Assembly (NCBI GenBank): GCA_030611885.1 | Contig: JAUWOY010000007.1 | Span: 19,750-83,749 of the forward strand | DNA length: 64,000 nt | From: Chloroflexota bacterium | GTDB taxonomy: Bacteria; Chloroflexota; Anaerolineae; VGOG01 | Reading direction: 5' to 3' | Shown: positions 1-60,866 of the stretch, piece after piece | Layout: every line of letters starts with the position of its first letter | Position numbering within the stretch: position 1 is the stretch's first letter | Notes under the pieces: generated by a model | Databases searched by the model: none | What the model was told of the DNA's origin: nothing | Seen by the model: the letters and a program-made list of their open reading frames with translations, nothing else | Program-made: the position numbers and the translations under genes

Positions 1-759
1 TTCATCCTCTCGGATCGTGATACTTTCAAGCAGGTTGGTTTCGTTGAAAAACTCAACTGCAGGGAGTTCTGATGCAAAAGGTGGTAACCAGACAATGGCA
101 GCCGGCTGCTCTTCTAAGGAACCGAAAAATCCTGAGTATGCTTGAGTGAAATCCAAGAAACTGCTCTGGATAGCACTTCGCATACTCGCTCCTATCTGAA
201 GAGCACTACCAATCTGGTCCCAAGGCAGTTGGTGTAGTGAAGCCTGAGCCAATACCGACAGTTCCGATATTTGGGCTAGGTGAGAATTCAGTGCTAGATT
301 GGAATATTGAACAGTTTCAAGAACTGACCTTACTGGCTGTAATTGACTTTGCCATATTTCTGATACGGATGGTAGTTGAGCAAACGATTTTGCGATAACA
401 TTGGTCGTATCAAACAGATTGCTGATGGAAAGGTTCGCAGAATACAAAGCTTCATACGCAGGGGGACGAACGAGCCCACTAATATCTGGCAGAACCAGTT
501 GAGCATCAATGATCTTGGAGAAATCGGCAGCGACGGCTAGGGAATCTGCAATGTTCTTTGTGAGCATATCGTAAGCAGTAGCGGCCCTAGCTATCTCGGC
601 CATTAGGGATGCATTTTGCTCTCTGAACTGCCGCAGTGTGTCGGTTACAGCTTGGAAACCTCTGATCGAATCCTGAGAAACTGTAACTTCCAGAGCTTTG
701 GACAGATTGGCGTCTTCGCCTCGTCTACCATTCACTTGGCCTTCTTTTTGTTCATCCAT
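1..759 (-). CDS. hypothetical protein, truncated by the window edge (absent from ORF track)
   Basis: Manual minus-strand translation from ATG 759-757 (MDEQKEGQVNGRRGEDANLSKALEV...MAEIARAATAYDML...) stays open to position 1. Starts about 30 nt downstream of E115 copy A. AT-richer than flanks. Confidence 0.5.
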   Translation of the reverse strand, partial: MDEQKEGQVNGRRGEDANLSKALEVTVSQDSIRGFQAVTDTLRQFREQNASLMAEIARAATAYDMLTKNIADSLAVAADFSKIIDAQLVLPDISGLVRPPAYEALYSANLSISNLFDTTNVIAKSFAQLPSVSEIWQSQLQPVRSVLETVQYSNLALNSHLAQISELSVLAQASLHQLPWDQIGSALQIGASMRSAIQSSFLDFTQAYSGFFGSLEEQPAAIVWLPPFASELPAVEFFNETNLLESITIREDE

Positions 760-790
760 AGAATTCACTCGTTCTTGCACTCGGGAGTAG

Positions 791-905
791 CCGCCGTGGG
801 AGTAGGAACACCGGTTACCGGCATCCCCGCACAGATTCCGGCGTGCGGCTCCACGCACGATTCTGAATTGGCGGTGGTGTGGGCGACCACCTCACCGGCC
901 ATAAC
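791..905 (-). repeat. E115 element copy A (conserved ~115-nt hairpin-forming intergenic element)
   Basis: Aligns with 8403-8515, 9201-9315 and 10030-10142. Core TTCCACGCACGATTCTGAATTGGCGG. GC hairpin GGTGGT/ACCACC. Confidence 0.85.
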
Positions 906-926
906 TACGCGGCGTTCTCGTAAAGC

Positions 927-1718
927 TCATTGCTTTCGATAAGAACCGTCCGAGTAGCGCTGGAAAGTATCCCAAATTACTGCCGGAACAGTGGGCTTTC
1001 CAACTCGAACCAAACCGTCAAATGCCCAGTCATTAGATGGATCAGGTCCAAACCATACGTGACCGATCTCATTCCCACTTGGGCCGATAATCTGTACTGT
1101 CCAATCCTGTTTTCCCGCTAAATCTTTCAGTGCTACCGTGCTTCCGAGGGGGACCTCAGAGACCTGGAGAAGCAGTCTTTGCTGTATTTCTTCTCTAAGC
1201 TCGATCCATGGGATAAACTCATCACAAGCATTGATACAAATTCCCGCTTCTCGCCCGTCAACTGGTCCCCACCTTACTTCTTGGGGCTCAAGATCTAATG
1301 TTGGTTGAGTTGTTGTAGGCAAAGGAGTCATTGTTGGTGGGACTGCGGTTACTGTTGGCGGGGACGTCGGAGTAGGTGTACTCGTTGGAGCCAAAGGAGG
1401 CATTGTCGCTGGGACTGCGGTTGCTGTTGGCGGGGGCGTCGGAGTAGGCGTACTCACTGGAGCCAAAACAAACGTGGAAGTCGGAGCTGGAACCTCTCCC
1501 TGAGGAGGTACAAAGAATGGCAATATATACAATAGGATGCTTGCCAGTATCAAAACGATTCCTGCTCTTGCAAACAACTTTTGGCTCTCTGCGGGGATGT
1601 TTATGATAACCTTGGTGCTACCCACTCTACCAACAAGCGCGAGAAATAGAAAGGCAATCCCCCCTATGCCAAGAATGGTTGGCAACGGGCTCTTAACAAC
1701 TGCTTCTACCACTTCCAT
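927..1718 (-). CDS. membrane-anchored hypothetical protein with Pro/Thr-rich linker
   Basis: 263-aa ORF with an N-terminal hydrophobic helix, a PT-rich tandem linker and a ~110-aa C-terminal domain of unknown family. Confidence 0.6.
   Translation of the reverse strand: MEVVEAVVKSPLPTILGIGGIAFLFLALVGRVGSTKVIINIPAESQKLFARAGIVLILASILLYILPFFVPPQGEVPAPTSTFVLAPVSTPTPTPPPTATAVPATMPPLAPTSTPTPTSPPTVTAVPPTMTPLPTTTQPTLDLEPQEVRWGPVDGREAGICINACDEFIPWIELREEIQQRLLLQVSEVPLGSTVALKDLAGKQDWTVQIIGPSGNEIGHVWFGPDPSNDWAFDGLVRVGKPTVPAVIWDTFQRYSDGSYRKQ
1329..1472. repeat. 2 x 72-nt tandem duplication inside the PT-rich linker
   Basis: 1329-1400 and 1401-1472 are near-identical (cattgttggtgggactgcggttactgttggcgg... 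vs cattgtcgctgggactgcggttgctgttggcgg...). Confidence 0.85.
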
Positions 1719-2053
1719 TTCTGCTACTCCTCTTGGCGACGGACAGGCTTCTAGGCATACTACTACTTGCCAGACTTGTCGCCGCGGTTTGGCCGTGCCT
1801 CAATGGTTCCCCTCAAACCAGTCGGGGCTTTTCTTTGTTGTCTACGTATAGTATAACAGATTTCGCCTCGTTTGGCAACATCAAAAAAGCCACCAGTGCC
1901 GTTGACGCAGACGGCTTCTTGCTTATCGCTGCCGCCTTTGCCTCTTTGCAAAGTCTCAGGTATGATACAGACAGTAAGAGAGCGGTGCCCTGAGCGGCTC
2001 GACTGAGCTCGCCGAAGTCCTGCCGAAGGGCTGTACGGTGGCTAACCGCCAAA

Positions 2054-2081: not shown

Positions 2082-3893
2082 ATAACCCCGGAGGCAATCA
2101 CCGTGAAGCATCTCGGACGCGCACTGGGTTATCTCAAACATTACTGGCTGCTGGCTGCAGGGGCATTTCTCGGCCTGCTCATCTCCTCCGCCACCCGCCT
2201 GGTGATTCCGCGCCTGACCCAGACGATCATTGACGACGGCATCGTTGCCGGGCAGATGCGGGTCGTCTTGCGGGCTGCGGCAGGCACAGTGGGCCTGGCC
2301 ATCGCTGGCTCGGTCTTCACCTTCCTGCAAGGCGTGCTCTCCGCCCGCACTGCCCAGGGCGTGGCCTACGACTTGCGCAATCAACTCTACGCCAGGATCC
2401 AATCCCTCTCCTTCAGCTACCACGACCGCGCCCAGACCGGGCAACTCCTCACCCGCGCCACGTCCGATGTGGAGATGGTGCATCATTTCGTGGGCATGGG
2501 CTTCATCTATCTGATCAGTTCTATCCTGATGATGGTCGGCAGCATCGCACTGCTGGTCGCCACCGACTGGCAACTGGCGCTCATCATGCTGGTGCTGGTG
2601 CCGCTCACTTTTGGGGTCTTCGCCTTTTTCGCCAGCAAAGCCCGGCCACTGTTTATGCTGATTCAGCAGCGGCTGGCCGATCTCAACACCGTGCTGCAGG
2701 AAAACCTGGCCGGCGTGCGGGTCGTCAAGGCCTTCGCCCGCGAGCCCTACGAGGCGCAGCGCTACACCCAGGCCAACCAAAACCTGTTCGACCTGAACCT
2801 GGTCGTGGGACGGCTGTTTGCGACGGCGATGCCGCTCATTTTTCTGATCGCCAATCTGTCGCTCTTGTCTGTCTACTGGATCGGCGGCTACCAGGCCATC
2901 GCCGGTGGCCTCAGCGTGGGGCGGCTGGTCGCCTTCGCCAACTACATGATGATGGCCTTTTTCCCCATGCTGATGCTGGGTATGATCATGGCCATGATCT
3001 CGCAGGCCGGGGCTTCGGCCGAGCGCGTTTTCGAGATTCTCGATGCCCAGTCGGAAGTGGCCGAGAAGCCGGACGCGGTCGAGCTCCCTGCCATTGAGGG
3101 CCGGGTGGTTTTCGAGCAGGTCAGTTTCCGCTACTTCGGTGGGGGCGAGCTGGTTCTCAAGGAAGTCAGTTTCACCGCCGAGCCGGGCCAGACGGTGGCC
3201 CTGCTCGGCGCGACCGGCTCCGGCAAGTCCACCATCATCAACCTCATCCCCCGCTTCTACGACGTGACCGAGGGGCGGGTGACGGTGGATAGCTACGACG
3301 TGCGCGACGTGACGCTGGACTCCCTGCGCCAGCAGGTGGGCATCGTGCTCCAGGAGACGACGCTGTTCTCAGGCACCATCCGCGAGAACATCGCCTTCGG
3401 CCGACCTGAAGCTCAGCTCGAAGAGATCATCGCCGCTGCCAAAGCTGCCGAGGCCCACGACTTCATCATGGGTTTCGCAGACGGGTATGAATCGCCAGTG
3501 GGGGAGCGCGGGGTCACGCTCTCAGGGGGAGAGAAGCAGCGCATCGCCATCGCTCGCGCGCTGCTCCTGGACCCGCGCATCCTCATCCTGGACGACGCCA
3601 CCTCCAGCGTGGACTACGAGACGGAGTTCCGCATCCAGCAAGCGCTGGAGCGGCTGATGGAGGGCCGCACCAGCTTCGTCATCGCCCAGCGCATCGCCAC
3701 GGTGCTCAACGCCGATCAGATTCTGGTGCTGGAGCGGGGCGAGGTCGTGGCCCGGGGCACGCACGAGGAACTGTTGGACGAGAGCCCCATTTATGCGGAG
3801 ATTTACTACTCGCAGTTGGAGGGGGGAATTGGCGAAGCGCAAGAAACCAGGTTTTTTGGAAAAAACCTGGTTTCTTCCCAGGAGGAGCCATGA
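2073..3893 (+). CDS. ABC transporter, fused permease/ATP-binding subunit (type 1 exporter); likely true start GTG 2103
   Basis: Six-TM N-terminal half. Walker A GATGSGKST, signature LSGGEKQR, Walker B ILILDDATS. Confidence 0.9.
   Translation: MYNITPEAITVKHLGRALGYLKHYWLLAAGAFLGLLISSATRLVIPRLTQTIIDDGIVAGQMRVVLRAAAGTVGLAIAGSVFTFLQGVLSARTAQGVAYDLRNQLYARIQSLSFSYHDRAQTGQLLTRATSDVEMVHHFVGMGFIYLISSILMMVGSIALLVATDWQLALIMLVLVPLTFGVFAFFASKARPLFMLIQQRLADLNTVLQENLAGVRVVKAFAREPYEAQRYTQANQNLFDLNLVVGRLFATAMPLIFLIANLSLLSVYWIGGYQAIAGGLSVGRLVAFANYMMMAFFPMLMLGMIMAMISQAGASAERVFEILDAQSEVAEKPDAVELPAIEGRVVFEQVSFRYFGGGELVLKEVSFTAEPGQTVALLGATGSGKSTIINLIPRFYDVTEGRVTVDSYDVRDVTLDSLRQQVGIVLQETTLFSGTIRENIAFGRPEAQLEEIIAAAKAAEAHDFIMGFADGYESPVGERGVTLSGGEKQRIAIARALLLDPRILILDDATSSVDYETEFRIQQALERLMEGRTSFVIAQRIATVLNADQILVLERGEVVARGTHEELLDESPIYAEIYYSQLEGGIGEAQETRFFGKNLVSSQEEP
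3842..3875. repeat. 34-nt palindrome inside the 3' end of the first ABC gene
   Basis: AGAAACCAGGTTTTTT-GG-AAAAAACCTGGTTTCT, translated in frame as ETRFFGKNLVS, just upstream of the AGGAGG of the next cistron. Related half-site at about 35318-35335. Confidence 0.85.
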
Positions 3894-5740
3894 TGTTCAG
3901 AGGTAGACACATGCGCGGTCTCGCCCAGGAGACCGCCAAACCCACGGAGACAGGCAAGACGCTGCGCCGTCTGCTGAGATATTTCCGCCCGTTTCGTGTC
4001 CTGTTGCTGGCGGTGGCTGCCCTGATTCTCATCAGCACGGCGCTGCGGCTGGCTGCCCCCTACCTGATCGGCGTCGCCGTGGACCAGTTCATCTCACCCG
4101 GCGACCAGCCCGGCCCCGCCTGGCTGGCGCGGCTCTTGCCGCAGGACGTCAGCCGGGCCGGCGGTCTGACGGCGACCATGCTGCTGCTGCTCGGCAGCTA
4201 TCTGCTGAACTGGGCCGCCACCGCTGCTCAGTTCTACCTGATGACGGTAGCCGGACAGCGGGTGCTGCTCCACATGCGCACCCAGATTTTCGAACTCATT
4301 CAGACCCTCTCGCTCAAGTTCTTCGACCAGCACGAGGCGGGCGACCTGATGTCGCGCCTGGTCAACGACACCCAGGTCATCAACCAGGTTTTCAGCGGTG
4401 GGGTCGTGCGGCTGGCGAGTATGAGCCTCTCCATCGTCGGCATCATCTTCTCCATGCTCGGCCTCAACTGGCGGCTGGCGTTGGTCAGTTTCACCGTCCT
4501 GCCGGTGATGTTCCTGACCACCACCGTCTTCTCCCGGCGGGCGCGGGCCGCCTTCCGTCGCACTCGCCAGACCATCGGCAAAGTGAGCGCTGAGCTGCAG
4601 GAGAACATCGCCGCTGTGCGCGAGGTGCAGGCTTTCGCTCGCGAGGACGCAAACGTGGCCGAGTTCAAGGCCATCAACGCCGCCAACCGCGACGCCAACG
4701 TCCAGGCCCAGTCCGTCCTCTCCGCCTTCTCCCCCACCCTGGACGTGCTCAGCACCATCGCGCTGGCCATCGTGGCCGGCTACGGCGGCTACCTCGCGCT
4801 GGCCTTCGACCCGCCGCTGGTCAGCGTGGGCATCATCGTCTCCTTCCTGATTTACGTGCGCCGCTTCTACGAGCCCATCCGCGGCCTCGCCACCCTGTAC
4901 GCCCAACTCCAGTCGGCGGTGGCCGGGGCCGAACGCATCTTCGAGCTACTCGACACCCAGCCCGAGATCACCGACGCTCCCGACGCTGTGCCCTTGCCAC
5001 TCGTTCAAGGCCGCGTCGAGTTCGACCACGTCAGCTTCGCTTACAAAGAAGAGGAGCCGGTGCTGCAGGAAATCTGCCTGACAGCACAGCCGGGGCAAAC
5101 GGTGGCCCTGGTGGGTCCGACCGGCGTGGGCAAGACGACGCTGGTCAGCCTGCTGACCCGTTTCTACGACGTAGATGAGGGGGCGATACGGATAGACGGC
5201 CACGACCTGCGGCAGGTGACCCGCGAGAGCCTGCGGCAGCAGATGGGGATGGTCTTGCAGGACACCTTTCTCTTCTCCGGCACGGCGATGGAGAACATCC
5301 GCTACGGGCGGTTGGAGGCGGACGATGAGGAGGTCACGGCGGCGGCACAACTGGCCAACGCCGACCAGTTCATCACGCGGCTGCCAGAGGGCTACCAGAC
5401 TCAACTGGGTGAGCGCGGCCACAATCTGAGCCAGGGGCAGCGGCAACTGATCGCCATCGCCCGTGCGGTGCTGGCCGATCCGCGCATCCTGATCCTCGAC
5501 GAGGCCACCTCCAGCGTGGACACGCGCACCGAGCGGCTGATTCAGCGGGCCTTGGACGGGCTGCTCAAGGGGCGCACCTCATTCGTCATCGCCCATCGGC
5601 TGAGCACCATCCGCAACGCCGATCAGGTGATCGTACTAGAGGAAGGCCGCATCGTCGAGCAAGGCACGCACGAGGAATTGCTGGCCGCGCGGGGTCTGTA
5701 CCACGAGCTCTACAATAGTCAGTTTCGGCGACAGGTGTAA
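3890..5740 (+). CDS. ABC transporter, fused permease/ATP-binding subunit (partner of upstream gene)
   Basis: Walker A GPTGVGKTT, signature LSQGQRQL, Walker B ILILDEATS. ATGA start/stop overlap with the upstream cistron. Confidence 0.9.
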   Translation: MMFRGRHMRGLAQETAKPTETGKTLRRLLRYFRPFRVLLLAVAALILISTALRLAAPYLIGVAVDQFISPGDQPGPAWLARLLPQDVSRAGGLTATMLLLLGSYLLNWAATAAQFYLMTVAGQRVLLHMRTQIFELIQTLSLKFFDQHEAGDLMSRLVNDTQVINQVFSGGVVRLASMSLSIVGIIFSMLGLNWRLALVSFTVLPVMFLTTTVFSRRARAAFRRTRQTIGKVSAELQENIAAVREVQAFAREDANVAEFKAINAANRDANVQAQSVLSAFSPTLDVLSTIALAIVAGYGGYLALAFDPPLVSVGIIVSFLIYVRRFYEPIRGLATLYAQLQSAVAGAERIFELLDTQPEITDAPDAVPLPLVQGRVEFDHVSFAYKEEEPVLQEICLTAQPGQTVALVGPTGVGKTTLVSLLTRFYDVDEGAIRIDGHDLRQVTRESLRQQMGMVLQDTFLFSGTAMENIRYGRLEADDEEVTAAAQLANADQFITRLPEGYQTQLGERGHNLSQGQRQLIAIARAVLADPRILILDEATSSVDTRTERLIQRALDGLLKGRTSFVIAHRLSTIRNADQVIVLEEGRIVEQGTHEELLAARGLYHELYNSQFRRQV

Positions 5741-5853: not shown

Positions 5854-5888
5854 TCCAATCTCTAACCTCCAACCTCTAACTTCTATCT
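5854..5888. repeat. heptanucleotide tandem tract (TCYAAYC x5)
   Basis: tccaatc tctaacc tccaacc tctaact tctatct; overlaps the glnS stop codon. Confidence 0.85.
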
Positions 5889-7583
5889 CCCACTTCCCCG
5901 CTTTTTCTCGATCTTGGCCCAGGTATCACGCAGCGCCACCGTCCGATTGAATACCAGCTTTTCAGCGGACGAATCGGGATCCACGCAGAAGTAGCCCTGC
6001 CTCATGAACTGGCATATGCTTCCCGGTGCTGCACCCGCCAGACTGGGCTCAACGCGGCACGAGGTCAACGTCTCCAGCGAGTTCGGATTCAGATTAGCCG
6101 TGAAATCTTCACCCTCCTCCACATCGAGAGGATTGGCTGTCAAGAAGAGACGATCGTACAGGCGCACCTCGGCTTCCAGCGAGTGGTCGGCCGAAACCCA
6201 GTGCAGCGTTCCCTTGACCCTGCGTCCGTCCGGAGCCGATCCGCCGCGTGTCTCTGGATCGTAGGTGCAGTGCAGCTCAACCACCTCGCCGCTTTGCTCG
6301 TCTTTAACCATCCCCACACATTTGACGAAATACGCGTGCATCAGCCGCACCTCGCGCCCGGGGGCCAGACGCCAGAACTTCTTCGGCGGCTCTTCGCGAA
6401 AATCATCCCGTTCGATGTACAGCTCGCGGGAAAAAGGCACCTGCCGCGTCCCCATGCTGTCATCCTCCGGATTGTTGATACATTCCATTTCCTCTACCAG
6501 GTCTTCCGGATAGTTGACGATGACCACCTTGAGGGGTCGCAGCACCCCGAACACCCTCGGCGCGCGCTTGTTCAAATCCTCGCGGATGCAGTGCTCCAGC
6601 AGGGCGACGTCAACGATACTATCAGTCTTGGCCACACCGATGCGGTCGCAAAAGTCGCGGATGGCTTCTGGAGTGTAGCCGCGTCGCCGCAAGCCCGCCA
6701 GGGTGGGCATCCGCGGATCGTCCCAGCCGTTGACGCGCCCTTCTTCGACCAATCGCATAAGGTATCGCTTGCTCATCGCGGTGTAGCTGAGAAAAAGGCG
6801 AGCGAACTCCATCTGCCGTGGATGATAGATCCCCAACTGATCAAGGAACCAATCGTATAGAGGGCGATGGTCTTCGTATTCCAGCGAACAGAGAGAATGG
6901 GTGATCCCTTCGATGGAATCCGATTGGCCGTGGGCCCAGTCGTACATCGGATAGAGACACCACTCGTCGCCCGTCCGATGATGGGTGGCATGGAGGATGC
7001 GGTACATGACCGGATCGCGCAGATTCATGTTACCAGAGGTCATGTCAATTTTGGCTCGAAGCACGTGGGCGCCGTCCTCGAACTCGCCGGCCCGCATGCG
7101 CTGGAACAGGTCCAGGTTCTCTTCCACCGAACGGTCTCGATACGGACTGTCCTTGCCCGGCTTGCCAAAGGCGCCACGGTACTCCTTGATCTCCTCCGCG
7201 CTCAAACTGTCCACGTAGGCCTTGCCATCTTTGATCAACTGCACCGCCCACTGATAGAGCTGCTCAAAGTAGTCCGAGGCGTAGAACAGCCGATCCTCCC
7301 AATCGAAGCCCAGCCATCGAATGTCCTCCATGATCGCGTCCACGTATTCCTCTTCTTCTTTGACGGGATTGGTGTCATCGAAGCGCAGATTGTAGAGCCC
7401 CCCGAACTCCTCGGCGATACCGAAAGTAATGCAGATGGCCTTGGCGTGTCCGATGTGCAGATACCCGTTCGGCTCCGGTGGGAATCGAGTATGCACTCGC
7501 CCGCCGAACCTGTTTGTCCTCAGGTCTTCTTTGATGGCATCTCGGATGAAGTCGGAGGGGCGTTCGGAATTGGGTGTGGTCAT
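5883..7583 (-). CDS. glnS: glutamine--tRNA ligase
   Basis: 566 aa. Class I HIGH motif ([14 protein letters not shown]), KMSKS-like AMSKRY, and a GlnRS-type C-terminal anticodon-binding region. Confidence 0.93.
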
Positions 7584-7654
7584 ATTTGCAGCTCCCTTCT
7601 CGGTTTTTGTTTCAGTTGTTGCATGGCTTTTGCTACTTGAGTTTGGCTGCCTCT

Positions 7655-8380
7655 CTATGGTTTCAATGACCGGGAATCAACTATTTTCAGAAGATGACTC
7701 GCTAGCATTATCATTTCGACAGCTTCGGTTGCATCTATTACTACATTGCGATGACTGTGTGGGTTCTTGTACAGGCCTATTGCGCCTGCGAACAAGTGAG
7801 CGAGGGACTCCCTTTCACCGGGAGGAAGAGTAAGGTCAGTCAATGGGCCCTTAGCTGAATCAAAAGCTTTGCGCATCAAGGGCATACCAATATCCCCTGC
7901 ATCAAATCCACCAGCATCGCGGACTTTGACTTCGACCTCCTTGAAGGCTTGAAAAACGGCAGTGTCGTAATCACCTCGGAGGAAGGTCGCCCAGACTTTT
8001 TGAGCAATTACTGGATGAAGCATCCGCCTAGGAAGCATATCGGCTTTGCGGTATGTTTCCAAATCCACAGCGCTTTTTATAGCCTGCCCTCTTCTGGTGA
8101 CGAAAACCCACTCTCCTTGGGAACCTGGTTTGGGAGCAATGAGCCCCTCTCGTTCCAGCCATACCCAAGCCTCCATAAGAGCTTGGCTAATTCTTTTTCT
8201 ATACTGAGCTGGATACTCTTGTACAGTGTGCGGTAAGCTGAAGTTGTATCGATTCAAATTACCTATTTCAGAGGGAGAAAGCGAGTTGAGGTATTCTAGG
8301 ACTGCACCTGCGAGTTCCTCAGGTTCGAGGGAAAGCAGGGATTCCGGATCTGGGATGATTGAGAATATCAATTTGCTCAT
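7655..8380 (-). CDS. TIGR02391 / Hypoth_Ymh family protein
   Basis: C-terminal half ([14 protein letters not shown]...[26 protein letters not shown]) matches my recollection of the Ymh/TIGR02391 signature. AGGAG Shine-Dalgarno before the ATG. Confidence 0.7.
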
Positions 8381-8402
8381 TTGAAGCTCCTATATTTGAC
8401 AG

Positions 8403-8515
8403 CCATCGCGGTAGGACTACCAGCTATCCAACGGCCCCCCGCACAGATCCCGACGTGCAGTTTCACGCACGGTTCTGAATTGGCGGTGGGGCGCGACCGC
8501 TCCGCCGACCGTAAT
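8403..8515 (-). repeat. E115 element copy B
   Basis: Core TTTCACGCACGGTTCTGAATTGGCGG. Hairpin GGCGG/CCGCC. Confidence 0.85.
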
Positions 8516-8546
8516 TGGGCGGCGGCTGATTCCTCGCAACCAACTA

Positions 8547-9155
8547 TCAGTTCCAGAGACTGTATGTGATAAAAAGCAACAAGATGCCCACAATGGCAAG
8601 AAATACATCCAGTACCTGGATTAGTGTAATCGTCTTCTCCATTGAAGACCAACTGCGAATCTTCGGGAGAGGATCAAGTAGGAGATGTTTCAACTCTTCG
8701 ATGTCAGGATACGGGTAAAATACGCATCCCGGGTTATTCCTAGAGAACTCCCTCCACTCATGTTCTAAATTCGCGATATTGATTCTGTCGAGGCCGACAA
8801 CCTTTTCAATGACTGCAATGGGTATCCACCGGAGATTCAAGTATCGCCGCCCAGCTTGCGTCAGTACCTTCCAATAGCCAGAGAGGACCAACGAGAAAAG
8901 GCCGGTTAAGAAAGCCAATACGCCTAGGATGCACAGGCCGATATGAAACTCATGAGAGTTGATTATGAGAGGCTCAATATCAGCAAGCGGCTTTGCTACA
9001 GCCCCAACAATTGCGATTAGGGCTGCATGGACGGCTAAGAAAAGGGTCATCCTGCTTTGGCCTAGATCGTCCTCGTGGCTATACTGCTTCCATGCCTCAA
9101 TGTACATTATTTTGAGCCATTCCTCATCCTTGTATAAATCTCCAAGTTTACTCAC
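8547..9155 (-). CDS. three-TM membrane protein, unknown function
   Basis: 202-aa ORF with a GTG start after AAAGGAG. Three hydrophobic helices and a charged N-terminal helix. Confidence 0.6.
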   Translation of the reverse strand: MSKLGDLYKDEEWLKIMYIEAWKQYSHEDDLGQSRMTLFLAVHAALIAIVGAVAKPLADIEPLIINSHEFHIGLCILGVLAFLTGLFSLVLSGYWKVLTQAGRRYLNLRWIPIAVIEKVVGLDRINIANLEHEWREFSRNNPGCVFYPYPDIEELKHLLLDPLPKIRSWSSMEKTITLIQVLDVFLAIVGILLLFITYSLWN

Positions 9156-9200
9156 CGCTCAATCTCCTTTCTTGAACAAATACTCTCGACGTAGGCACCA

Positions 9201-9315
9201 CCATCGCGGTAGGACTGCCGGTTACTCAGCAGCCCCCCGCACACGTCCCAGCGCGCGGTTTCACACACGGTTCTGAATTGACGGTGGGGCGGGTGCCTGC
9301 CCCACCAACTATAAC
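9201..9315 (-). repeat. E115 element copy C
   Basis: Core TTTCACACACGGTTCTGAATTGACGG. Hairpin GGTGGGGC/GCCCCACC. The element end GTTATAG contains the last codons and the stop of the upstream gene. Confidence 0.85.
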
Positions 9316-10003
9316 TTAGTCGGGCTCCTCCCGAGATGCTCTGCCCGAGTTGTGATGGGTCGTGCTGTTTCGTGCCGTGAAGCTGCCGCCTGTGCCTCCT
9401 TGAATGGCAGCAGGTGGACAAGCTTTTTGAAACGCTGCTCGGCAATCTCTGCTTTGCCCTTGTCAGAGAACACGTCTATGAGAAATCTATCTACTCCCTT
9501 GAGAAAGGCTTCAGCGAGAGCTCGAATGGATACTATAACCAGATCCGTTGAAACCGCAGGGTTATAGGAAACCTCGGGAACTGACTGATCCACATACCCC
9601 ACTTGCCGACACTTTCCCTCACGACTCAAACGTGAAGCAATGCTGTAGCTATACCTGTTAAGGTTGAAAACCGATGTTTTTTGACCTAACGGTAGCAACA
9701 AAAACGTCAGTTTCTATCCTTAACGAGTATATGTAGCATTCCACACCGAGCACCATATAAATCGAGACCAGTAAGCTGTTCCGTACAGGGAAAGCGAATG
9801 TACTTCTCAGCCCACTCGATGAAGTTCTCTCGCTTTACATCCTCCTGATTGACTGGCATGTTTAGGTATGCCATTGTGTCGATACCTGAATAGATGAGAA
9901 TCACTGCGGCGGCGTAACACTCATTCTCCAGAGCAATTCGTATGCCCCTTTTTATGCCCTTGTAAACAACGTTTATGATTGGATCTCTGCTCAAGTCTAT
10001 CAT
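9309..10003 (-). pseudogene. hypothetical gene split by a 68-nt palindromic insertion (tracked ORFs 9707..10003 + 9309..9701)
   Basis: Removing 9657-9724 joins codon 93 of the first ORF (CTC, 9727-9725) in frame to codon 16 of the second (AGG, 9656-9654). This gives one ~208-aa ORF reading ...LYGARCGMLHIL|RYSYSIASRLSREGKC... Confidence 0.6.
9657..9724. mobile_element. 68-nt MITE-like palindromic element with 7-bp terminal inverted repeats
   Basis: Minus sense: GTTAAGG...GAAACTGACGTTTTTG...CAAAAAACATCGGTTTTC...CCTTAAC. The length is not a multiple of 3, which accounts for the frame change between the flanking half-ORFs. Confidence 0.6.
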
Positions 10004-10029
10004 GTGATAAATGCTTTCGCAGCGTGCCG

Positions 10030-10142
10030 GTCGTCAGGGTAGAAACGCTGGTTGCCCGATGCCCCCCACAGATTCCGATGTGCGGGTTCACGCACGGTTC
10101 TGAATTGGCGGCGGGGTGGGCGACCGCCCCGCCGACCATAAC
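10030..10142 (-). repeat. E115 element copy D
   Basis: Core GTTCACGCACGGTTCTGAATTGGCGG. Hairpin GGCGGGG/CCCCGCC. Starts immediately after the TAA stop of 10143..10832. Confidence 0.85.
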
Positions 10143-10832
10143 TTAGGCGACCGCCGATTCCATCTCCTCTACGTCAAGAAATACGTGAAGAACGTATTCG
10201 GAAAGCCTGTGCTGCTTCCGGATTCCGAGAAACGACTCCAAGAGTTTGATCGCAGCCTCCCATTCCGATTGGGTACTAGGGCCATTCATCTCCTTGTCGT
10301 TGATGAAGTAGAGGAAAAGCAGGTATGCCGGAAGGTCATTAAGCTCACGGAGCAAGTAAAGGTGAGCAAGCCGGTTTGTGTACTGATAGAAACAGGTGGC
10401 CCAATCAGCGTCCGAATGTGAGCCAAGAAACCGCTTGGTTGCATTTAGACTCTCACGAATCTTGGTAAGCGATGGCTCGCTTGCTCCCGTGGGATCAGTA
10501 ACCATCTCTGGAACGTGTGCCTTTGCCTCTACAAGTATGACATCCCCTCGATCTGTCTTCGCAAGCGCGTCCCAGGCCGGGCCAAACCTGGGCCAGAACG
10601 ATGCCAGTGGCATCCTTTCTAACGTAATGCCAAGCCTGGTTATGAATTCCTGATCCCTGTACTCGGCGTAGTCATCATCCCTCAGGGGTGACAACCAGTG
10701 TACACGTTCTTCCTGAGCAAGTCCGAGTGTGGTAACAAGAACTCGATCTATCAACTCGGGATGCTCGTTCACCAATACCTGAAGCCATTTCTGACTGCCC
10801 CGCAATGCACGGTTTTGCTCCCTCCGCGACAT
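10143..10832 (-). CDS. hypothetical protein, possible PD-(D/E)xK nuclease fold
   Basis: 229 aa. ...GPAWDALAKTDRGDVILVEAKAH... resembles a D...ExK motif. No other recognisable family signature. Confidence 0.55.
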   Translation of the reverse strand: MSRREQNRALRGSQKWLQVLVNEHPELIDRVLVTTLGLAQEERVHWLSPLRDDDYAEYRDQEFITRLGITLERMPLASFWPRFGPAWDALAKTDRGDVILVEAKAHVPEMVTDPTGASEPSLTKIRESLNATKRFLGSHSDADWATCFYQYTNRLAHLYLLRELNDLPAYLLFLYFINDKEMNGPSTQSEWEAAIKLLESFLGIRKQHRLSEYVLHVFLDVEEMESAVA

Positions 10833-10865
10833 GACTATATTCCTTTCTTCCCAGTTGTTGCCCTA

Positions 10866-10894
10866 ATTATACTATGCCATCCCAGTTTCGTCAA
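10866..10894 (-). promoter_or_regulatory. near-consensus sigma70 promoter driving the accessory island
   Basis: Minus strand: TTGACG (10894-10889), 17-nt spacer, TATAAT (10871-10866), about 30 nt upstream of the ATG at 10832. Confidence 0.55.
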
Positions 10895-10969
10895 AGTGGA
10901 AACAAAAACTCCCCGCCGGAACCTAACAAGGCCAGCAGGGAGACGCCCACCAGAGCAGATGATGGATCA

Positions 10970-12037
10970 CTACTCGCCCGCCAAGCTCAGGGGAAAGGTG
11001 TGCACGTTGTCGTACTTCTGCCCCATGGTCACGTTGACGTCGCCGGTGCTCATCCCGTAAACGACCGACCATTGGGTGCTCTCCTGGGACACGTCGGCCA
11101 GGAGGTGCATGGCGTCCTGCGCGGTAAGCTGCCCTTCGGCTTCGGTGAGTCGCTGGCTGAGCTTGTCGTACCGCCAGCATTCCCCTTCGGCAGATTCGCC
11201 GGCCGAGGCGCGCAGGAAATTGGTCGCCTGATGCCAGGGCGTCTCATTGGGAATGATCACCATCTCACCCTGGTAGAACTCCACCAGCACTGACCGCCCC
11301 GACGTGTCAGCGATCAGGTAATGGATGGAGGGACCACCCTCGAAATCAATGTTGTAGCTTTGCATGATGGCGAGGGCCTGGTCCACGTTGCTGGTGTGAT
11401 CGAGCATCTGGCGGATCACCGTCAACGAGCCGATGGTCTGTTTGTTGGGATCGGGGCGCACGTTCCCCGGCGGGACGGCGGCCATGCCAACGGCCAGACC
11501 GCGCTCGTTCAGGCCGTCGAACGGCCAGAACGGGGTGTGTAAAAGCGCTCGGCGCTCGCTGAGAGGCAAGTCGGTCACGGTGCCCGCCGTGGTTTCCCCG
11601 AACCCAAAATAGGCAATGTCCACCATCGAAACCGAAGCGTACCCATCCGGCGGGTCGGTGAACAGGAGCACGGCCGGGCTGTATTCCCAGTCGAAGTTGC
11701 GGCCATAGAGCTTATGGTCCGCATCGCCGAGAGCCGCGAAGAGCGAACAGGCCCACGCCGGCAGCGATGCCGTCTCAGCGGAAGACGTCCTCTGCTCGTA
11801 TGCGCCGTAGTAGCGCATGGTGTAGAGCGGGTAGTCGTCCACCTGCTCCAGGCTGCTGAGCGTCGCGGCTTCTTCGTGCGACAGGCCATCGGCGCGAGGC
11901 TCGGCTGTTTGCGTGGTGGTCGGGGTTGAGGTCGGTGGGACGAGCGTAGGCGCAACCACAGGAGCGCTGCATCCAACCAATAGCCCCAGGATCAATGCTA
12001 GGCCAATTATCTTGTGTAGCAACTTCTGGATGTTCAT
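10970..12037 (-). CDS. choloylglycine hydrolase / linear amide C-N hydrolase family lipoprotein
   Basis: Lipobox LLVGC. Ntn-type nucleophile context AWACSLFAA and the GRNFDW motif. Confidence 0.75.
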   Translation of the reverse strand: MNIQKLLHKIIGLALILGLLVGCSAPVVAPTLVPPTSTPTTTQTAEPRADGLSHEEAATLSSLEQVDDYPLYTMRYYGAYEQRTSSAETASLPAWACSLFAALGDADHKLYGRNFDWEYSPAVLLFTDPPDGYASVSMVDIAYFGFGETTAGTVTDLPLSERRALLHTPFWPFDGLNERGLAVGMAAVPPGNVRPDPNKQTIGSLTVIRQMLDHTSNVDQALAIMQSYNIDFEGGPSIHYLIADTSGRSVLVEFYQGEMVIIPNETPWHQATNFLRASAGESAEGECWRYDKLSQRLTEAEGQLTAQDAMHLLADVSQESTQWSVVYGMSTGDVNVTMGQKYDNVHTFPLSLAGE

Positions 12038-16548: not shown

Positions 16549-19182
16549 TCAACCACTCCCCACCTCCCGCTGCAACTCATACAGCTTGTTGAGCGCCTCC
16601 AGCGGGGTCATGGACTCCAGGTCTAGCTTCTTCAGCTCCTCGATGATGGGGCTGGCCTCGGGGAAGAGGGCGAGTTGACGGATTTCGGCGATGCGGCGGG
16701 GTCTGATGGGCGCTCGGTGGGAATCGCGCTCCAGATCCTCCAGTATCTCCTCGGCGCGGTGGATGACGGTCCTGGGCAGGCCCGCCAACTGCGCCACGTG
16801 GATGCCATAGCTGCGGTCGGCGCCGCCGGGGACGATCTTGTGCAGGAAGATCACTTTGTCGCCCTCCTCGACCACGGCCACGTTGTAGTTGCGCACCCTG
16901 GGCAGGACGCTGGCCAGCTCGGTCAACTCGTGGTAGTGGGTGGCGTAGAGGGTCTTGGCTCTGAGACGCGGGTGGTTGTGAATGTGCTCCACCACCGCCC
17001 AGGCGATGGACATGCCGTCGTAGGTGCTGGTCCCCCGCCCGATCTCGTCCAATATGAGCAGGCTGCGGTTGGTGGCATGGTGGAGGATGTTGGCCATCTC
17101 GATCATCTCTACCATGAAGGTTGACTGGCCAGCCCAGATCTCGTCTTGAGCACCGATGCGGGTGAAGATGCGGTCCACCAGCCCCATCCGGGCCTCGTCG
17201 GCGGGGACGAAGGAGCCAATCTGGGCCATGAGGACGATGAGGGCTACCTGGCGAAGATAAGTACTTTTGCCGCTCATGTTCGGGCCGGTGATGATCAGAA
17301 TCCCCTCCTCCTGGGAGAACCGGGCATCGTTGGGCACGAAGGGTTCTTCCCGCCGGGTGAGTTCCACCACTGGATGGCGGCCAGCGATGATCTCGATCTC
17401 GTCGCCATCGGTCAGGATGGGGCGGACGTAGTTGTTGCGGATGGCTACCTCGGCCAGAGCGGCGTAGGCGTCCAGGTGGGCCAGTGCCCGGGCGGTGGAA
17501 AGCAGCCGTCCGGCCGCAGCGGCCACCTGATCGTTGACCTCGCGGAAGAGGCGGGTCTCAACGTCGAGGATGCGCTCCTGGGCGTTCAGGATCAGCGATT
17601 CGTACTCCTTGAGCTCCGGGGTGATAAAACGCTCGGCGTTTACCAGGGTCTGCTTGCGGATATACTCCTCAGGCACGGCATCCAGGTTGGCTTTGGTCAC
17701 CTCGATGTAGTAGCCAAAGACCTTGTTGTAGCCCACTTTGAGGGATTTGATGCCCGTGCGTTTTCGCTCGGTCCGCTCTAAGTTGGCTACCCAGTTTTTG
17801 GCGTCTCTGGAGGCAGTGGCGACGCTATCCAGTTCCGCTGAGAAGCCGGCCTTGATCACCCCCCCGCTGGCCAGCGTGGCTGGCGGGTCGTCCACGATGG
17901 CCTCTCCGATGAGGGAGGCTATCTCTTCACAGGGATCAAGTTGGGAGAGCAAGGTCTGCAAGGGATGATCACCTTCAGCCCCGCCCCCCCGTTCCCCCCA
18001 GTTTTGGGGGGCCAGGGGGGCGAGCTGCGATAGCGCTTCTCGAATCCGCGGCACCTTCTCCAGGCTCTGACGAATTCCCACCAGGTCCCTTGGTACCGCA
18101 ATGCGTTGCACTGCTCGGCTGGTTAACCTCTCCAGATCGGCCAGTTGTTTGAGAAGGGCCATCACCTGGGTTCGGGTCGGCGTATCCTGATAGAGGGCTT
18201 CCACGGCGTCGAGCCGCTGCTCCAGTTTGTCCACATCCAGCAACGGCTGGTTGAGCCACTGGCGTAGCAGGCGTCCGCCCATGGCCGTGACCGTGGCGTC
18301 CAGCACGCCCAGCAGCGATCCCTTGACCGAGCCGGTGCGGATGGTGCGGCTCAGTTCCAGATTTCGCCGGGTGGATGCATCGAGGGTCATGAACTCGCTG
18401 GTGGAATAGGTCCGCAGATCGCTCAGTTGCACCAAAGCTGCTTTCTGTGTCTCCCGCAGGTACTGGACGATGACCCCCGCAGCGCGCACGGCCAGGGGCA
18501 ACCCTTCGCAGCCGTAGCCAGCCAGCGAGGCTACCTCGAAGTGATCGAGGAGAGCCTGGCGGGCGTTGCCCAACTCGAAGCGCCAACTCTCGTATTTTGA
18601 GATTTGAAGTTTAAAGTTTAAAGTTTGAAGTTTGAAGTTCGAAGTGTCCTGGATCAGGCACTCGGCTGGCCGCAGCCTCTCCAGCTCCTCCACCACCGCC
18701 TGTTCGACGTCGTCGCCCGACAGTTGCGTGGTAGCGAATTCGCCCGTGGTTATGTCGGCGTAGGCAATGCCTGCTCTTTTGTCTTCTATTACCAGGGCGG
18801 CCAGGTAGTTGTTGCTCTTTTCTTCCAGCAACGTCGGTTCCATTATGGTGCCCGGGGTGATCACCCGTATCACCTCGCGGGGCATCAATCCGCGCACGGG
18901 CTGGGCGCCCACCTGCTCCACGATGGCCACCTTGTGCCCCGCCTTGATGAGCTTGGCGAGGTAGCCCTCGACGGCGTGATAGGGCACCCCGGCCAATGGC
19001 ACCCGTTGGCCCTTCCCCACCGGCCGCGAGGTGAGGACGATGTCGCAGGCCTGGGCGACGACCTTCGCGTCCTCGTCGAAGCTCTCGTAAAAATCCCCCA
19101 GGCGGAAGAGGACGATGGTGTCAGGGTATTGCTTCTTGATCTGCAAGTATTGGTGGCGCATGGGGGTCAATTCCTTGGCCAT
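16549..19182 (-). CDS. mutS: DNA mismatch repair protein MutS
   Basis: 877 aa. N-terminal mismatch-binding GDFYE, Walker A GPNMSGKST, DEIGRGTST, C-terminal dimerisation region. Confidence 0.95.
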   Translation of the reverse strand: MAKELTPMRHQYLQIKKQYPDTIVLFRLGDFYESFDEDAKVVAQACDIVLTSRPVGKGQRVPLAGVPYHAVEGYLAKLIKAGHKVAIVEQVGAQPVRGLMPREVIRVITPGTIMEPTLLEEKSNNYLAALVIEDKRAGIAYADITTGEFATTQLSGDDVEQAVVEELERLRPAECLIQDTSNFKLQTLNFKLQISKYESWRFELGNARQALLDHFEVASLAGYGCEGLPLAVRAAGVIVQYLRETQKAALVQLSDLRTYSTSEFMTLDASTRRNLELSRTIRTGSVKGSLLGVLDATVTAMGGRLLRQWLNQPLLDVDKLEQRLDAVEALYQDTPTRTQVMALLKQLADLERLTSRAVQRIAVPRDLVGIRQSLEKVPRIREALSQLAPLAPQNWGERGGGAEGDHPLQTLLSQLDPCEEIASLIGEAIVDDPPATLASGGVIKAGFSAELDSVATASRDAKNWVANLERTERKRTGIKSLKVGYNKVFGYYIEVTKANLDAVPEEYIRKQTLVNAERFITPELKEYESLILNAQERILDVETRLFREVNDQVAAAAGRLLSTARALAHLDAYAALAEVAIRNNYVRPILTDGDEIEIIAGRHPVVELTRREEPFVPNDARFSQEEGILIITGPNMSGKSTYLRQVALIVLMAQIGSFVPADEARMGLVDRIFTRIGAQDEIWAGQSTFMVEMIEMANILHHATNRSLLILDEIGRGTSTYDGMSIAWAVVEHIHNHPRLRAKTLYATHYHELTELASVLPRVRNYNVAVVEEGDKVIFLHKIVPGGADRSYGIHVAQLAGLPRTVIHRAEEILEDLERDSHRAPIRPRRIAEIRQLALFPEASPIIEELKKLDLESMTPLEALNKLYELQREVGSG
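18596..18644. repeat. heptanucleotide tract (TTTRAAG x7) inside mutS
   Basis: tttgaga tttgaag tttaaag tttaaag tttgaag tttgaag ttcgaag; encodes SNFKLQTLNFKLQISKY. Confidence 0.9.
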
Positions 19183-60668: not shown

Positions 60669-60739
60669 CTCGGGGACCAGGATTCGAACCTGGACTTTAG
60701 GATTCAAAGTCCCGCGTCCTACCATTAGACCATCCCCGA
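60669..60739 (-). tRNA. tRNA-Gln (anticodon UUG)
   Basis: Manual fold: acceptor UCGGGGA/UCCCCGA (U1-A72), anticodon loop CUUUGAA, T-arm CAGGTTCGAATCCTG, discriminator G. No encoded CCA. Confidence 0.85.
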
Positions 60740-60774
60740 TCGTTCCCTTCGTGGTTTGCACCATGGGTGGAAGG

Positions 60775-60847
60775 CAGCGAGGGTGGGCTTCGAACCCACA
60801 ACCTTCCGGTTAACAGCCGGATACTCTACCGGTTGAGCTACCTCGCT
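60775..60847 (-). tRNA. tRNA-Asn (anticodon GUU)
   Basis: Acceptor AGCGAGG/CCTCGCT, D-arm GCTC/GAGT, anticodon stem TCCGG/CCGGA with loop CTGTTAA, T-arm GTGGG-TTCGAAG-CCCAC. Confidence 0.88.
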
Positions 60848-60866
60848 GCGCTTTGGTTATCTCCAG

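Follow-up and report, generated by a model that had tools for sequence, protein, structure and literature searches.

The window analyzed here, a 64,000-nt stretch of DNA from an uncultured Anaerolineae bacterium, contains two arrays of minus-strand accessory genes that are punctuated by four copies (A to D) of a conserved intergenic repeat, hereafter called the separator. Copies B to D belong to array 1 and copy A is part of array 2. The two arrays are divided by the gene for glutaminyl-tRNA synthetase (GlnRS) and two plus-strand ABC transporter genes, and the single array of four copies proposed in a preliminary description of this DNA is thus not what is present. Array 2 runs past window position 1 into another copy, as seen in the related locus L014, which completes the pP_pnuc_1 gene and continues into a further R copy; this fifth separator begins just past the left edge of the window. 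Each separator consists of two modules, R and Lf, and the arrays are preceded by the promoter modules P (array 1) and P2 (array 2), the latter followed by a leader, Q. The features are as follows.

1-759, minus strand: 5' part of a pP_pnuc_1 (pPIWI-associated nuclease-like) gene, 419 aa in full
784-912, minus strand: separator copy A (covariance model, 117 bits; nhmmer R and Lf profiles), with Lf at 795-850 (gene sense, minus) and R at 852-911 (intron sense, plus)
927-1718, minus strand: array 2 gene, 263 aa, no family match, contains a 72-nt tandem repeat
1729-1920, minus strand: module P2 (∼1843-1920) and leader Q (1729-1842) of array 2
5883-7583, minus strand: GlnRS, a conserved core gene and the distal anchor of array 1
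7655-8380, minus strand: last gene of array 1, 241 aa, Hypoth_Ymh/TIGR02391 with weak HEPN-like defence matches, no R after it
8393-8522, minus strand: separator copy B (covariance model, 135 bits; nhmmer), with Lf at 8404-8463 and R at 8464-8520
8547-9155, minus strand: 8xMP gene (membrane protein of 202 aa, matching 8xMP weakly), carried by the unit that is also present in L001 and L013
9191-9322, minus strand: separator copy C (covariance model, 125 bits; nhmmer), with Lf at 9202-9261 and R at 9262-9321
9309-9701 and 9707-10003, minus strand: two small ORFs between copies D and C (130 aa and 98 aa), no family match
10021-10149, minus strand: separator copy D (covariance model, 118 bits; nhmmer), with Lf at 10032-10088 and R at 10089-10147
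10143-10832, minus strand: first gene of array 1, 229 aa, no family match
10855-10957, minus strand: module P, a terminator-like hairpin (10931-10911) and then the promoter driving array 1 (10894-10866)
10970-12037, minus strand: C45/choloylglycine-hydrolase family peptidase, a conserved core gene and the proximal anchor

Each array has a single strong promoter upstream and no terminator-like site between its genes, which agrees with the earlier placement of the copies inside operons. The near-consensus promoter described before array 1 is also present; it reads TTGACG-17-TATAAT on the minus strand, with 11 of 12 matches. Module P2 is built in the same way from a terminator-like hairpin and a promoter (1878-1850, TTGCCA-17-TATACT), and is followed by Q, a conserved leader of ∼115 nt. 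The P block recurs before other genes in relatives. Array 1 holds n genes and n-1 separators, such that its first gene lacks an Lf and its last gene lacks an R. The flanked genes are AT-richer than their surroundings, as had been claimed, with a GC content of ∼49% in the 8-10 kb and 0-2 kb stretches versus 56-65% in most other 2-kb bins. In relatives, the stretch that follows the peptidase gene downstream varies and carries HigB, DNA methyltransferases, and RE_XcyI. Modules R and Lf, together with the portable modules P and P2 and the leader Q, frame low-GC accessory genes, several of them defence-like, in a variable island between core genes. No recombinase, integrase (Phage_integrase), transposase, or reverse transcriptase domain was found among the ORFs of the 64-kb window. 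A phage or plasmid origin was considered and dropped, since neither of two scans of viral contigs returned a match. Exact-protein look-ups with the cassette proteins of the window returned only collinear fragments from the same population.

A covariance model was built from 12 full separator copies and used to search the window with filters off. This returned exactly four co-oriented matches of 117-135 bits, all on the gene-sense (minus) strand, and the next-best matches (<18 bits) arise from the opposite-strand reading of the palindromic hairpin. The four co-oriented copies of the preliminary description are thus real, and so is their nearly invariant core: CACRCACGRTTCTGAATTGRCGG occurs four times on the plus strand of the window (at 852, 8464, 9262, and 10089) against an expectation of 0 from 100 shuffles. 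The alignment of the copies over ∼115 nt also stands, but the length was underestimated, as conservation extends ∼10-20 nt further on each side and gives a separator of about 130-150 nt. Indels shift the reading frame between copies, in line with the view that the conservation is not protein-coding. As regards a generic dispersed repeat, raised earlier, the four copies in 64 kb are clustered and co-oriented; elsewhere the count is of exact cores, of which each MAG of three species representatives has one, and the core is also carried by 10 metagenome contigs. The comparisons as a whole drew on this one window and ∼40 short loci.

The position of the separators with respect to genes is close. 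Copy A sits between the gene at 927-1718 and the gene starting at 759, the R module of copy C contains the stop codon of the ORF at 9309-9701, and the conserved flank directly past the intron 3' end (see below) in copy D holds the TAA stop of the gene at 10143-10832. The separators thus supply stop codons to unrelated genes. A distance of 22-45 nt to the next start codon, previously given for every copy, does not apply to copy B, where only ∼13-24 nt intervene. A second small repeat (CCTGTCCYGAG..GTCGARGG) is inserted in or adjoins some separator copies. R-only and Lf-only copies are present in other loci, and each repeat is accordingly a composite intergenic separator of two modules, each of which is also found alone elsewhere.

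Judged by its sequence, the R half of each separator is the leftover 3' end of a group II intron, lying antisense to the genes. R is composed of the invariant core, a GC hairpin, and a terminal ...CCGACCATAAC, which correspond to the 3' strand of domain V, the J5/6 linker, domain VI with its bulged branch-point A, and the 3' splice site, the whole being 5'-truncated. The bulged A is retained, 7 nt from the 3' end, and R is followed by ∼11-20 nt of a single conserved 3' exon (TTAGGCGGCGG...). The assignment is anchored in intact relatives. RF00029 scores 52 bits on L008 (3678-3755), where the core is the domain V 3' strand and the GC hairpin is domain VI, and where a 549-aa RVT_N/RVT_1/GIIM ORF lies immediately upstream of domain V; the intact relatives L030 and L032 score 51.5 and 45.9 bits, respectively. 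Likewise, an R profile built with cassette copies alone as input matches seven intact intron ends with E values of 1e-14 to 5e-19. The intact introns are only ∼74% identical overall, yet the core is common to them. The parent intron family encodes a protein of 549-560 aa with RVT_N and RVT_1 domains and GIIM, with HNH domains in relatives. The statement that the element belongs to no named RNA family consequently no longer holds, because its core and GC hairpin are homologous to group II domains V and VI. An Rfam match, which the preliminary description had taken to speak against its own reading, was obtained through these intact homologues (45.9-52 bits) but not for the window copies themselves, none of which reaches threshold; the highest-scoring, copy B, gives a weak RF00029-like match of 17 bits on its gene strand. 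Copies A, C, and D and the L020 copy have no RF00029 match on either strand.

The remainder of the intron is missing from the window. The intron 5' RNA is absent, with neither domains I-IV nor a 5' GUGYG end found, and tblastn with the L008 intron protein returned nothing at E < 3. The sequence that pairs with the core is CAGATCCCG..., and the AGC triad is missing from the domain V 5' strand. Without domains I-IV, an AGC triad partner, and a reverse transcriptase, R is not a ribozyme. The GC hairpin with compensatory changes that had been noted earlier is confirmed in 18 distinct copies, where 91% of the cells of the domain VI helix are paired and both sides have changed in 5 of 14 pairs; its strand signal is weak, with 24 G.U cells on the intron strand versus 16 on the gene strand. 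An intercistronic structured RNA had been named earlier as one possible role. As the intron homology lies on the strand opposite the mRNA, the T:A to C:G compensation is most simply inherited from domain VI and does not speak for a new RNA of that kind, and covariation in the repeat, which may come from the parent RNA on the other strand, is no proof of a new structured RNA.

The Lf half has a different character. It is a gene-sense leader that consists of a G.U-rich 10-bp stem (H3) with a GUAA loop plus CCUACCGCGAUGG, and is located 15-45 nt before start codons. In most copies, four of the 10 H3 pairs are G.U or U.G, so that H3 folds on the gene strand only. The second hairpin of the preliminary description (CCGCAC/GTGCGG) is present and 85% paired. 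Covariation in Lf does not exceed that of shuffles. Gene-sense folding of copies A to C is more stable than that of shuffles (z -2.0 to -2.9, versus -0.4 to -1.5 for the opposite strand), whereas copy D behaves in the reverse manner, its opposite strand being the more stable. An intrinsic terminator is ruled out by the missing U tract: H1 is followed by CCGCCAATTCAGAACC, and a scan found no terminator-like site at any copy. An RNA-level role for the Lf half would be plausible.

Could the separator as a whole be a functional RNA, either a group II intron or ribozyme in split or miniature form on the plus strand, or a new RNA with a cis-regulatory or processing role on the gene strand? RNA function alone would then account for the conservation, and the retained bulged A, the gene-strand specificity of the G.U-rich H3 helix, and the weak match on the gene strand of copy B are consistent with this. 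We regard it as improbable, given that the copies have no domains I-IV and no AGC triad on the 5' strand opposite the domain V remnant, that copies A, C, and D and the L020 copy give no RF00029 match on either strand, that Lf covariation is not above shuffles, and that R and Lf are found separately.

An imperfect palindrome, H2, lies exactly at the R|Lf border (CAGAACCGTGCG-TGAAAC-CGCACGCCGGGATCTG), and the two separator arms are weakly similar when one is inverted, with 33 of 2000 shuffles attaining the observed alignment score. A reading of the separator as two inverted intron tails (an rcDVI-DV-DVI pseudo-palindrome) was entertained because the layout is suggestive. With the similarity this marginal, and with Rfam detecting no domain V or VI on the gene strand of the L020 copy, it is kept as an idea only.

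The separators mark the points at which gene units have been swapped between related strains. The unit consisting of Lf, the 8xMP gene, and R is ∼99% identical in the window, L001, and L013, while its neighbours differ, and in the same three genomes identity is only 86-89% for the GlnRS and peptidase genes. At the GlnRS anchor, homology with L001 resumes at 7644. The borders of the 8xMP unit fall inside separators, and identity collapses there. This demonstrates recent exchange of a unit with borders inside the repeat, and supports the earlier suggestion of a boundary site in a non-integron cassette-like arrangement. Distant 8xMP homologues in other taxa have no R or Lf nearby. Patchy replacement within a separator copy also occurs between near-identical strains: the window and strain L017 differ at 19 positions, of which 15 lie in the 131 nt that make up copy B and 4 in the 1346 nt outside. 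Transitions between shared and unshared sequence were located at alignment columns 35/36, 15-43, and 65/66, and half-copies end at column 63/64. No single crossover point accounts for all transitions plus the half-copy ends. At the P|Lf junction in L013, GAA is the only shared sequence, and this junction is therefore not a homologous event.

A dedicated non-integron cassette system, in which a recombinase encoded elsewhere recognizes the R|Lf palindrome and circular Lf-gene-R units are excised and inserted, with module P carrying the primary site, would fit several of these observations. Units do travel as Lf-gene-R, the H2 loop is the end point of R-only and Lf-only copies, a core-like CAACAACCG in P adjoins the junction in L013, and the copies are all co-oriented in a low-copy, clustered element. 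Leaving the half-copies aside, the transitions are even compatible with a single site at columns 36-42. Once the half-copies are included, different crossovers are needed for the unit transitions, which in two pairs lie no later than column 43, and for the half-copy ends (63/64). Moreover, no recombinase was found in the 64 kb or in fetched loci adjoining elements, the n genes of array 1 are accompanied by n-1 separators with no Lf on the first gene and no R on the last, and conservation of the core is already explained by intron origin, because the intact introns share it despite their overall divergence. We consider such a system rather unlikely. An equally doubtful formulation is that some Anaerolineae possess non-integron plug-and-play cassettes, in which portable promoters (P, P2), leaders (Q, Lf), and trailers (R) surround accessory and defence genes, the trailer, an exapted intron tail, meets the leader at the palindrome, and either a recombinase encoded in trans or the intron's own machinery excises and inserts the units.

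In size and layout, the arrays invite comparison with integrons. As with attC/VCR sites, similar co-oriented repeats of ∼120 nt lie between small promoterless accessory genes behind one strong promoter, and units are exchanged between strains. The S.ma.I2 intron offers a close precedent, being a IIC-attC intron located antisense between a cassette gene and attC (PMC3001079); R is likewise antisense, directly after a gene, and before the next boundary sequence. In contrast to that layout, the intron here lies outside class C and survives only as a remnant, neither an attC nor an integron integrase accompanies it, and intact members of the parent family were not found in the arrays. Class C introns have a small En-minus protein and insert after terminator or attC stem-loops, and the parent intron has neither property: its protein is 549-560 aa with RVT_N, and HNH in relatives, and it homes by EBS/IBS pairing to varied sites. 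An integron-type array without an integrase (CALIN), with Lf as attC and R as the remnant of a class IIC-attC intron, would explain the gene, antisense intron, attC geometry and the co-oriented, promoterless cassettes behind a strong upstream promoter. The motifs do not agree with it. On either strand the separator ends read GTT...AAC (GTTAYGG...GGTAAC), which is the reverse of the R''/R' order (RYYYAAC, then GTTRRRY). Furthermore, an attC border lies at the G|TT of the 3' R', whereas the switches observed here occur at columns 35-66, upstream of the sole GTTRRRY-like motif (GTTGGGT in H3, ∼97-103). As no IntI is encoded in the 64-kb window and array 1 has n-1 repeats per n genes, we find a CALIN very unlikely, and the attC reading itself was rejected on motif order, border position, and the missing integrase.

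R starts at the identical point of domain V in every cassette copy and carries an identical piece of 3' exon, which points to one founding event followed by spread. A separate abortive retrotransposition for each copy was rejected, as all cassette copies, including R-only ones, share the 3' exon stub (TTAGGCGGCGG/TGGGCGGCG) and the intact introns have no stub. The exons of the intact introns are unrelated to the separator flanks. CCACGTnnTTCTCT is common to five insertion sites of one intron and pairs with positions 366-379 of that intron, and no stem-loop rule is apparent. Lf was also discarded as an intron homing site: the seven intact copies lie in unrelated exons with no Lf near any of them, and the EBS/IBS (CCACGT..TTCTCT; TGCTG for L008) mismatches the Lf end. 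In L010, a group II D1-D4 fragment adjoins P2; the window has no counterpart.

Elements such as ERIC/IRU, Correia (nemis), BOX, RUP, and REP/BIME are imperfect palindromes of ∼100-150 nt that are modular, occur within operons, and likely form hairpins in mRNA. The separators resemble them in size, build, operon location, and likely hairpins. A miniature non-autonomous mobile element of this kind, with the separator or its modules inserted between genes by a transposase or intron ribonucleoprotein in trans, would make the cassette appearance secondary. The ∼130-nt size with three hairpins, the weak inverted similarity of the arms, the provision of stop codons to unrelated genes, and the CCTGTCCYGAG..GTCGARGG repeat in or beside some copies favor this possibility. 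However, no target-site duplication, cognate transposase, or empty/filled site pair was found at the separators. The separator also appears low-copy (four copies in 64 kb and a single exact core per MAG in the three species representatives), clustered in accessory-gene arrays, strictly oriented relative to genes, and intron-derived, unlike those repeats. The flanks of the element have no relationship to intact-intron exons, and Lf shows no EBS/IBS pairing. On balance we think a miniature element unlikely, somewhat more so than a dedicated recombinase.

Our current hypothesis, to which we assign a probability of roughly one half, is that the separators are intron-derived sequences that provide short homology for recombination or gene conversion and form hairpins in the operon mRNA. 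The near-invariant 25-30 nt, conserved because they are the most constrained part of the intron, would be the longest identical runs between diverged genomes, and could serve as portable homology for RecA-type recombination and gene conversion. In this way, any stretch bounded by two separators, or by one separator and a core-gene anchor, might be exchanged, lost, or gained with no need for a dedicated recombinase. Identity over 25-30 bases makes for inefficient homologous recombination, and such recombination is not known from this phylum. In the polycistronic mRNA, the separator would form three hairpins, with H1 following the stop codon, H2 at the R|Lf border, and H3 ahead of the next ribosome-binding site. 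Their probable role is to insulate or stabilize individual cistrons, and this would account for the fixed orientation and position. It should be noted that a site-specific recombinase would likewise be compatible with the strict co-orientation and with the H2 palindrome where R meets Lf.

Most bacterial group II intron copies are truncated or inactivated (PMC4424553), and intergenic intron remnants have been linked to rearrangements (PMC4181065). The separators relate to such remnants in that R is homologous to the domain V/VI 3' end of intact introns from the same kind of samples. They are distinguished by keeping ∼63 nt with one cut point in domain V and one 3' exon stub, and by the fusion of R to an unrelated leader module and its reuse behind many unrelated genes. 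Whereas RmInt1 fragments usually lose the 3' end (PMC4181065), the separators retain the 3' end only.

If our hypothesis is correct, a dead fragment of a selfish retroelement now serves as the standard connector joining accessory genes in an uncultured Anaerolineae bacterium, a member of a poorly known and uncultured phylum. The most constrained 25-30 bases of the intron would let diverged strains swap defence and accessory genes with fixed borders and without an integrase. This bears on the old idea that group II introns had a role in cassette formation, and would add to integrons a simple additional route to cassette-like modularity.

The window contains four occurrences of the 23-nt core CACRCACGRTTCTGAATTGRCGG (852, 8464, 9262, and 10089), all on the + strand, where chance predicts none. 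A repeat search groups the same four copies into one family, and a covariance model derived from 12 full copies and run unfiltered on the entire window returns exactly four matches of 117-135 bits, the rest of the window scoring ≤18 bits. The four repeats of the preliminary description are thereby confirmed; they align over ∼130-150 nt with a mean column identity of 76-80%. They had been placed in a single array, which does not hold: copy A is separated from copies B-D by the glutaminyl-tRNA synthetase (GlnRS) gene and two ABC transporter genes on the + strand, so there are two arrays. The relevant features, with the genes of both arrays on the minus strand, are:

784-912, core on +: separator copy A
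1729-1842, minus: leader Q, ∼115 nt, between promoter and start codons
1878-1850: promoter TTGCCA-17-TATACT, at the head of the copy-A array
∼1843-1920: block P2, a second terminator-hairpin/promoter block
5883-7583: GlnRS gene, between copy A and copies B-D
8393-8522, core on +: separator copy B
9191-9322, core on +: separator copy C
10021-10149, core on +: separator copy D
10894-10866, minus: promoter TTGACG-17-TATAAT
10855-10957: block P, a terminator hairpin plus near-consensus promoter

A Logan contig (L014) matches the left window end exactly and extends the array past copy A. It completes the next gene (419 aa, pP_pnuc_1 nuclease-like), after which a fifth separator copy lies just beyond the window edge.

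A scan for the core in public genomes and metagenomes gave 13 loci, all Anaerolineae MAGs or environmental contigs, and revealed that the separator consists of two modules. Full copies carry both R (core plus GC hairpin) and Lf, the module before start codons (AAACCGCACGCCGGGATCTGTGCGGGGGGCTGTTGGGTAACYGGCAGTCCTACCGCGATGG). R occurs alone in six contexts, and profile searches found Lf alone in several related loci: directly after block P in L013, ahead of a GH25 lysozyme gene and one further gene in L010, and ahead of a 149-aa gene in L021-L024. A small repeat, CCTGTCCYGAG(N)GTCGARGG, adjoins or interrupts several separator copies (L002 310-331, with three tandem copies in this locus; L012 1831-1852; L005 ∼1397-1420; L010 ∼5555-5573; L020 17136-17158).

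The separator had not been recognized as a named RNA family. None of the window copies reaches any Rfam threshold, but their relatives reveal that the R half is a group II intron homologue. In locus L008, RF00029 (group II intron, domains V and VI) matches 3678-3755 at 52 bits, and L030 and L032 score 51.5 and 45.9 bits, all exceeding the gathering score of 40. In the L008 match, the 3′ strand of domain V corresponds to the invariant core CACGCACGGTTCTG and domain VI to TTGGCGG...CCGCCG-A-CCATAAC, whose bulged A precedes the 3′ splice site by 7 nt. A 549-aa ORF with RVT_N, RVT_1, and GIIM domains ends just upstream of domain V in L008; some relatives additionally contain HNH domains, and the intact introns start with GTGCGA(C/A)CCGTT. 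A profile made solely from cassette copies matches the 3′ ends of these intact introns with E values of 1e-14 to 5e-19, which identifies the GC hairpin as domain VI. The compensatory changes claimed for this hairpin are real (91% of cells paired in 18 distinct copies, 5 of 14 pairs changed on both sides), but they are explained by membership of R, on the strand opposite the genes, in a named RNA family.

The window copies lack the domain V 5′ strand with its AGC triad and domains I-IV, and neither the 5′ part of the intron RNA nor a reverse transcriptase was found in the window. Judged from these sequence features, R is an inactive, 5′-truncated group II intron remnant, antisense to the genes; a functional ribozyme is excluded because domains are missing. 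Bacterial group II intron copies are likewise mostly truncated (PMC4424553), although RmInt1 fragments usually lose the 3′ end (PMC4181065), the part that R retains. Every R copy in a cassette carries the initial 11-20 nt of a common 3′ exon, TTAGGCGGCGG(CTGATTCC), which read in gene sense often provides the gene stop codon; the exons of intact introns are different and unrelated to this stub. Assignment of the family to class C was rejected, as homing is by EBS/IBS pairing into varied sites, and the resemblance to class IIC-attC introns (PMC3001079) is limited to geometry. In L010, a fragment at 6488-6619 matches Rfam group-II-D1D4-4 in gene orientation (45 bits, just below the gathering score). 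It immediately precedes a P2 block, with an Lf-only copy 210 nt downstream, and has no counterpart in the window.

In the gene-sense RNA, the main Lf helix is H3, which has 10 bp capped by a GUAA loop and is 89% paired. Because most copies have G.U or U.G at four of these pairs, H3 can form on the gene strand only; its covariation is not above shuffles. Gene-sense folds of copies A-C exceed shuffles in stability, with z scores of -2.0 to -2.9, versus -0.4 to -1.5 for the opposite strand, and copy D reverses this preference. At the R/Lf junction, hairpin H2 forms between the beginning of Lf and the complement of the domain V 3′ strand, and the previously described second hairpin, CCGCAC/GTGCGG, was found as a competitor of H2. 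The layout of Lf mirrors that of R on the opposite strand with marginal sequence similarity (33 of 2000 shuffles reach the score). Of the proposed RNA-structure role, what stands is that the separators may form RNA hairpins; the covariation is most simply inherited from the intron family, on the other strand.

The suggested boundary role in a non-integron, cassette-like arrangement was borne out by a segment of ∼800 nt, running from copy C Lf through a 202-aa 8xMP-like gene to the copy B core. The window, L001, and L013 share this unit at ∼99% identity with different neighbors in each, and identity collapses within the separators:

Window: P-g229-S-g98/g130-S-8xMP-S-Ymh-GlnRS
L001: P-g283-g511-S-8xMP-S-methyltransferase-g221-GlnRS
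L013: P-Lf-8xMP-S-...
(S, separator)

Since adjacent core genes are less similar (GlnRS, 86% versus L001; peptidase, 89% versus L009), the 8xMP unit has been exchanged recently. In other relatives, the same peptidase gene is followed 3′ by HigB/HTH, by an esterase, or by a P-driven methyltransferase and RE_XcyI and then a separator. Among the window cargo are a Hypoth_Ymh/TIGR02391 protein, which has weak HEPN-like defense matches, and a nuclease-like protein weakly matching an Argonaute-associated nuclease model (Aga_Nuclease). An inverted repeat at 9652-9729, with symmetric weak miRNA-precursor matches on both strands, lies where ORFs 9309-9701 and 9707-10003 meet; these may not both be real genes. 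Gene 927-1718 (263 aa) contains a 72-nt tandem repeat (1312-1467, 2.2 copies, 88% match).

The promoter predicted ahead of the first gene is present, and no terminator-like sites between array genes were found in the window scan. Array GC is ∼49%, versus 56-65% for most other 2-kb window bins. Block P and leader Q are reused ahead of unrelated genes. P, conserved at 88-92%, recurs at L020 12533-12625, L001 6887-6991, L013 1636-1728, L009 2068-2173, and L005 122-214, and P2 recurs in L010 and L021-L024. Q recurs at L009 2178-2284 and L005 221-330, and the three genes behind it have no detectable protein similarity; it has no Rfam match and looks like a portable 5′ UTR module. By eye, its 3′ half is also in the L020 methyltransferase gene leader. 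Elsewhere, the window holds many heptanucleotide tandem arrays of 4-8 copies (TTTGAAG, CTTTGAA, GTTGGAG, GAATTGC, and others; 18603-18645, 22080-22112, 29963-30031, 32326-32380, 37753-37789, 58652-58689, 59670-59756, and others), a ∼1.5-kb duplication (41836-43334 versus 51591-53137, 76-86% identity) whose copies lie in two neighboring, very large ORFs (39712-43392 and 47706-53210), and a three-tRNA gene cluster (60669-60938, minus strand).

The point at which shared sequence gives way to unshared varies between comparisons: alignment column 35/36 for copy C versus L001, columns 15-43 for copy B versus L001, and column 65/66 for copy B versus L013, with half-copies (R-only, Lf-only) ending at column 63/64. 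In copy C and L001, the rare variants T43 and T60 go with the downstream side, which contradicts a crossover fixed in the H2 loop; the half-copy ends contradict one fixed at columns 36-42. No single fixed crossover fits all switch points, and no recombinase, transposase, or reverse transcriptase domains occur in window ORFs or beside the elements in examined loci. A dedicated system for site-specific recombination at the H2 palindrome is a less probable alternative. The invariant stretch is equally invariant in intact introns only ∼74% identical overall, so core conservation needs no recombinase-binding explanation. Less likely than such a dedicated system is a MITE-like mobile separator, since the element is low-copy, clustered, and co-oriented and no duplications were seen. 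An integron reading fails on motif order, border position, and integrase absence.

Strains L017 and L018 are otherwise near-identical to the window (99.7% over ∼1.3 kb), with 4/3 differences in flanks of 1.3 kb/0.9 kb versus 15/11 inside copy B (8426-8501). The changes include replacement of domain VI and a re-paired alternative hairpin, which in L017 is CGCCCGCCGGGATATATCCGGGGGCG in place of CTGCAC...GTGCGG. On sequence comparison, such a distribution of differences is typical of gene conversion between copies. The best-supported candidate mechanism for the swapping of units is homologous recombination, together with gene conversion, at the core derived from the intron. The P/Lf junction in L013, where only GAA is shared, is not a homologous event. 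Hairpin formation in the operon mRNA would likely account for the fixed orientation and position of the separators. In kind, the separators belong with intron remnants and transcribed intergenic repeats; discovery of a dedicated mechanism would make their cassette-like behavior highly interesting.
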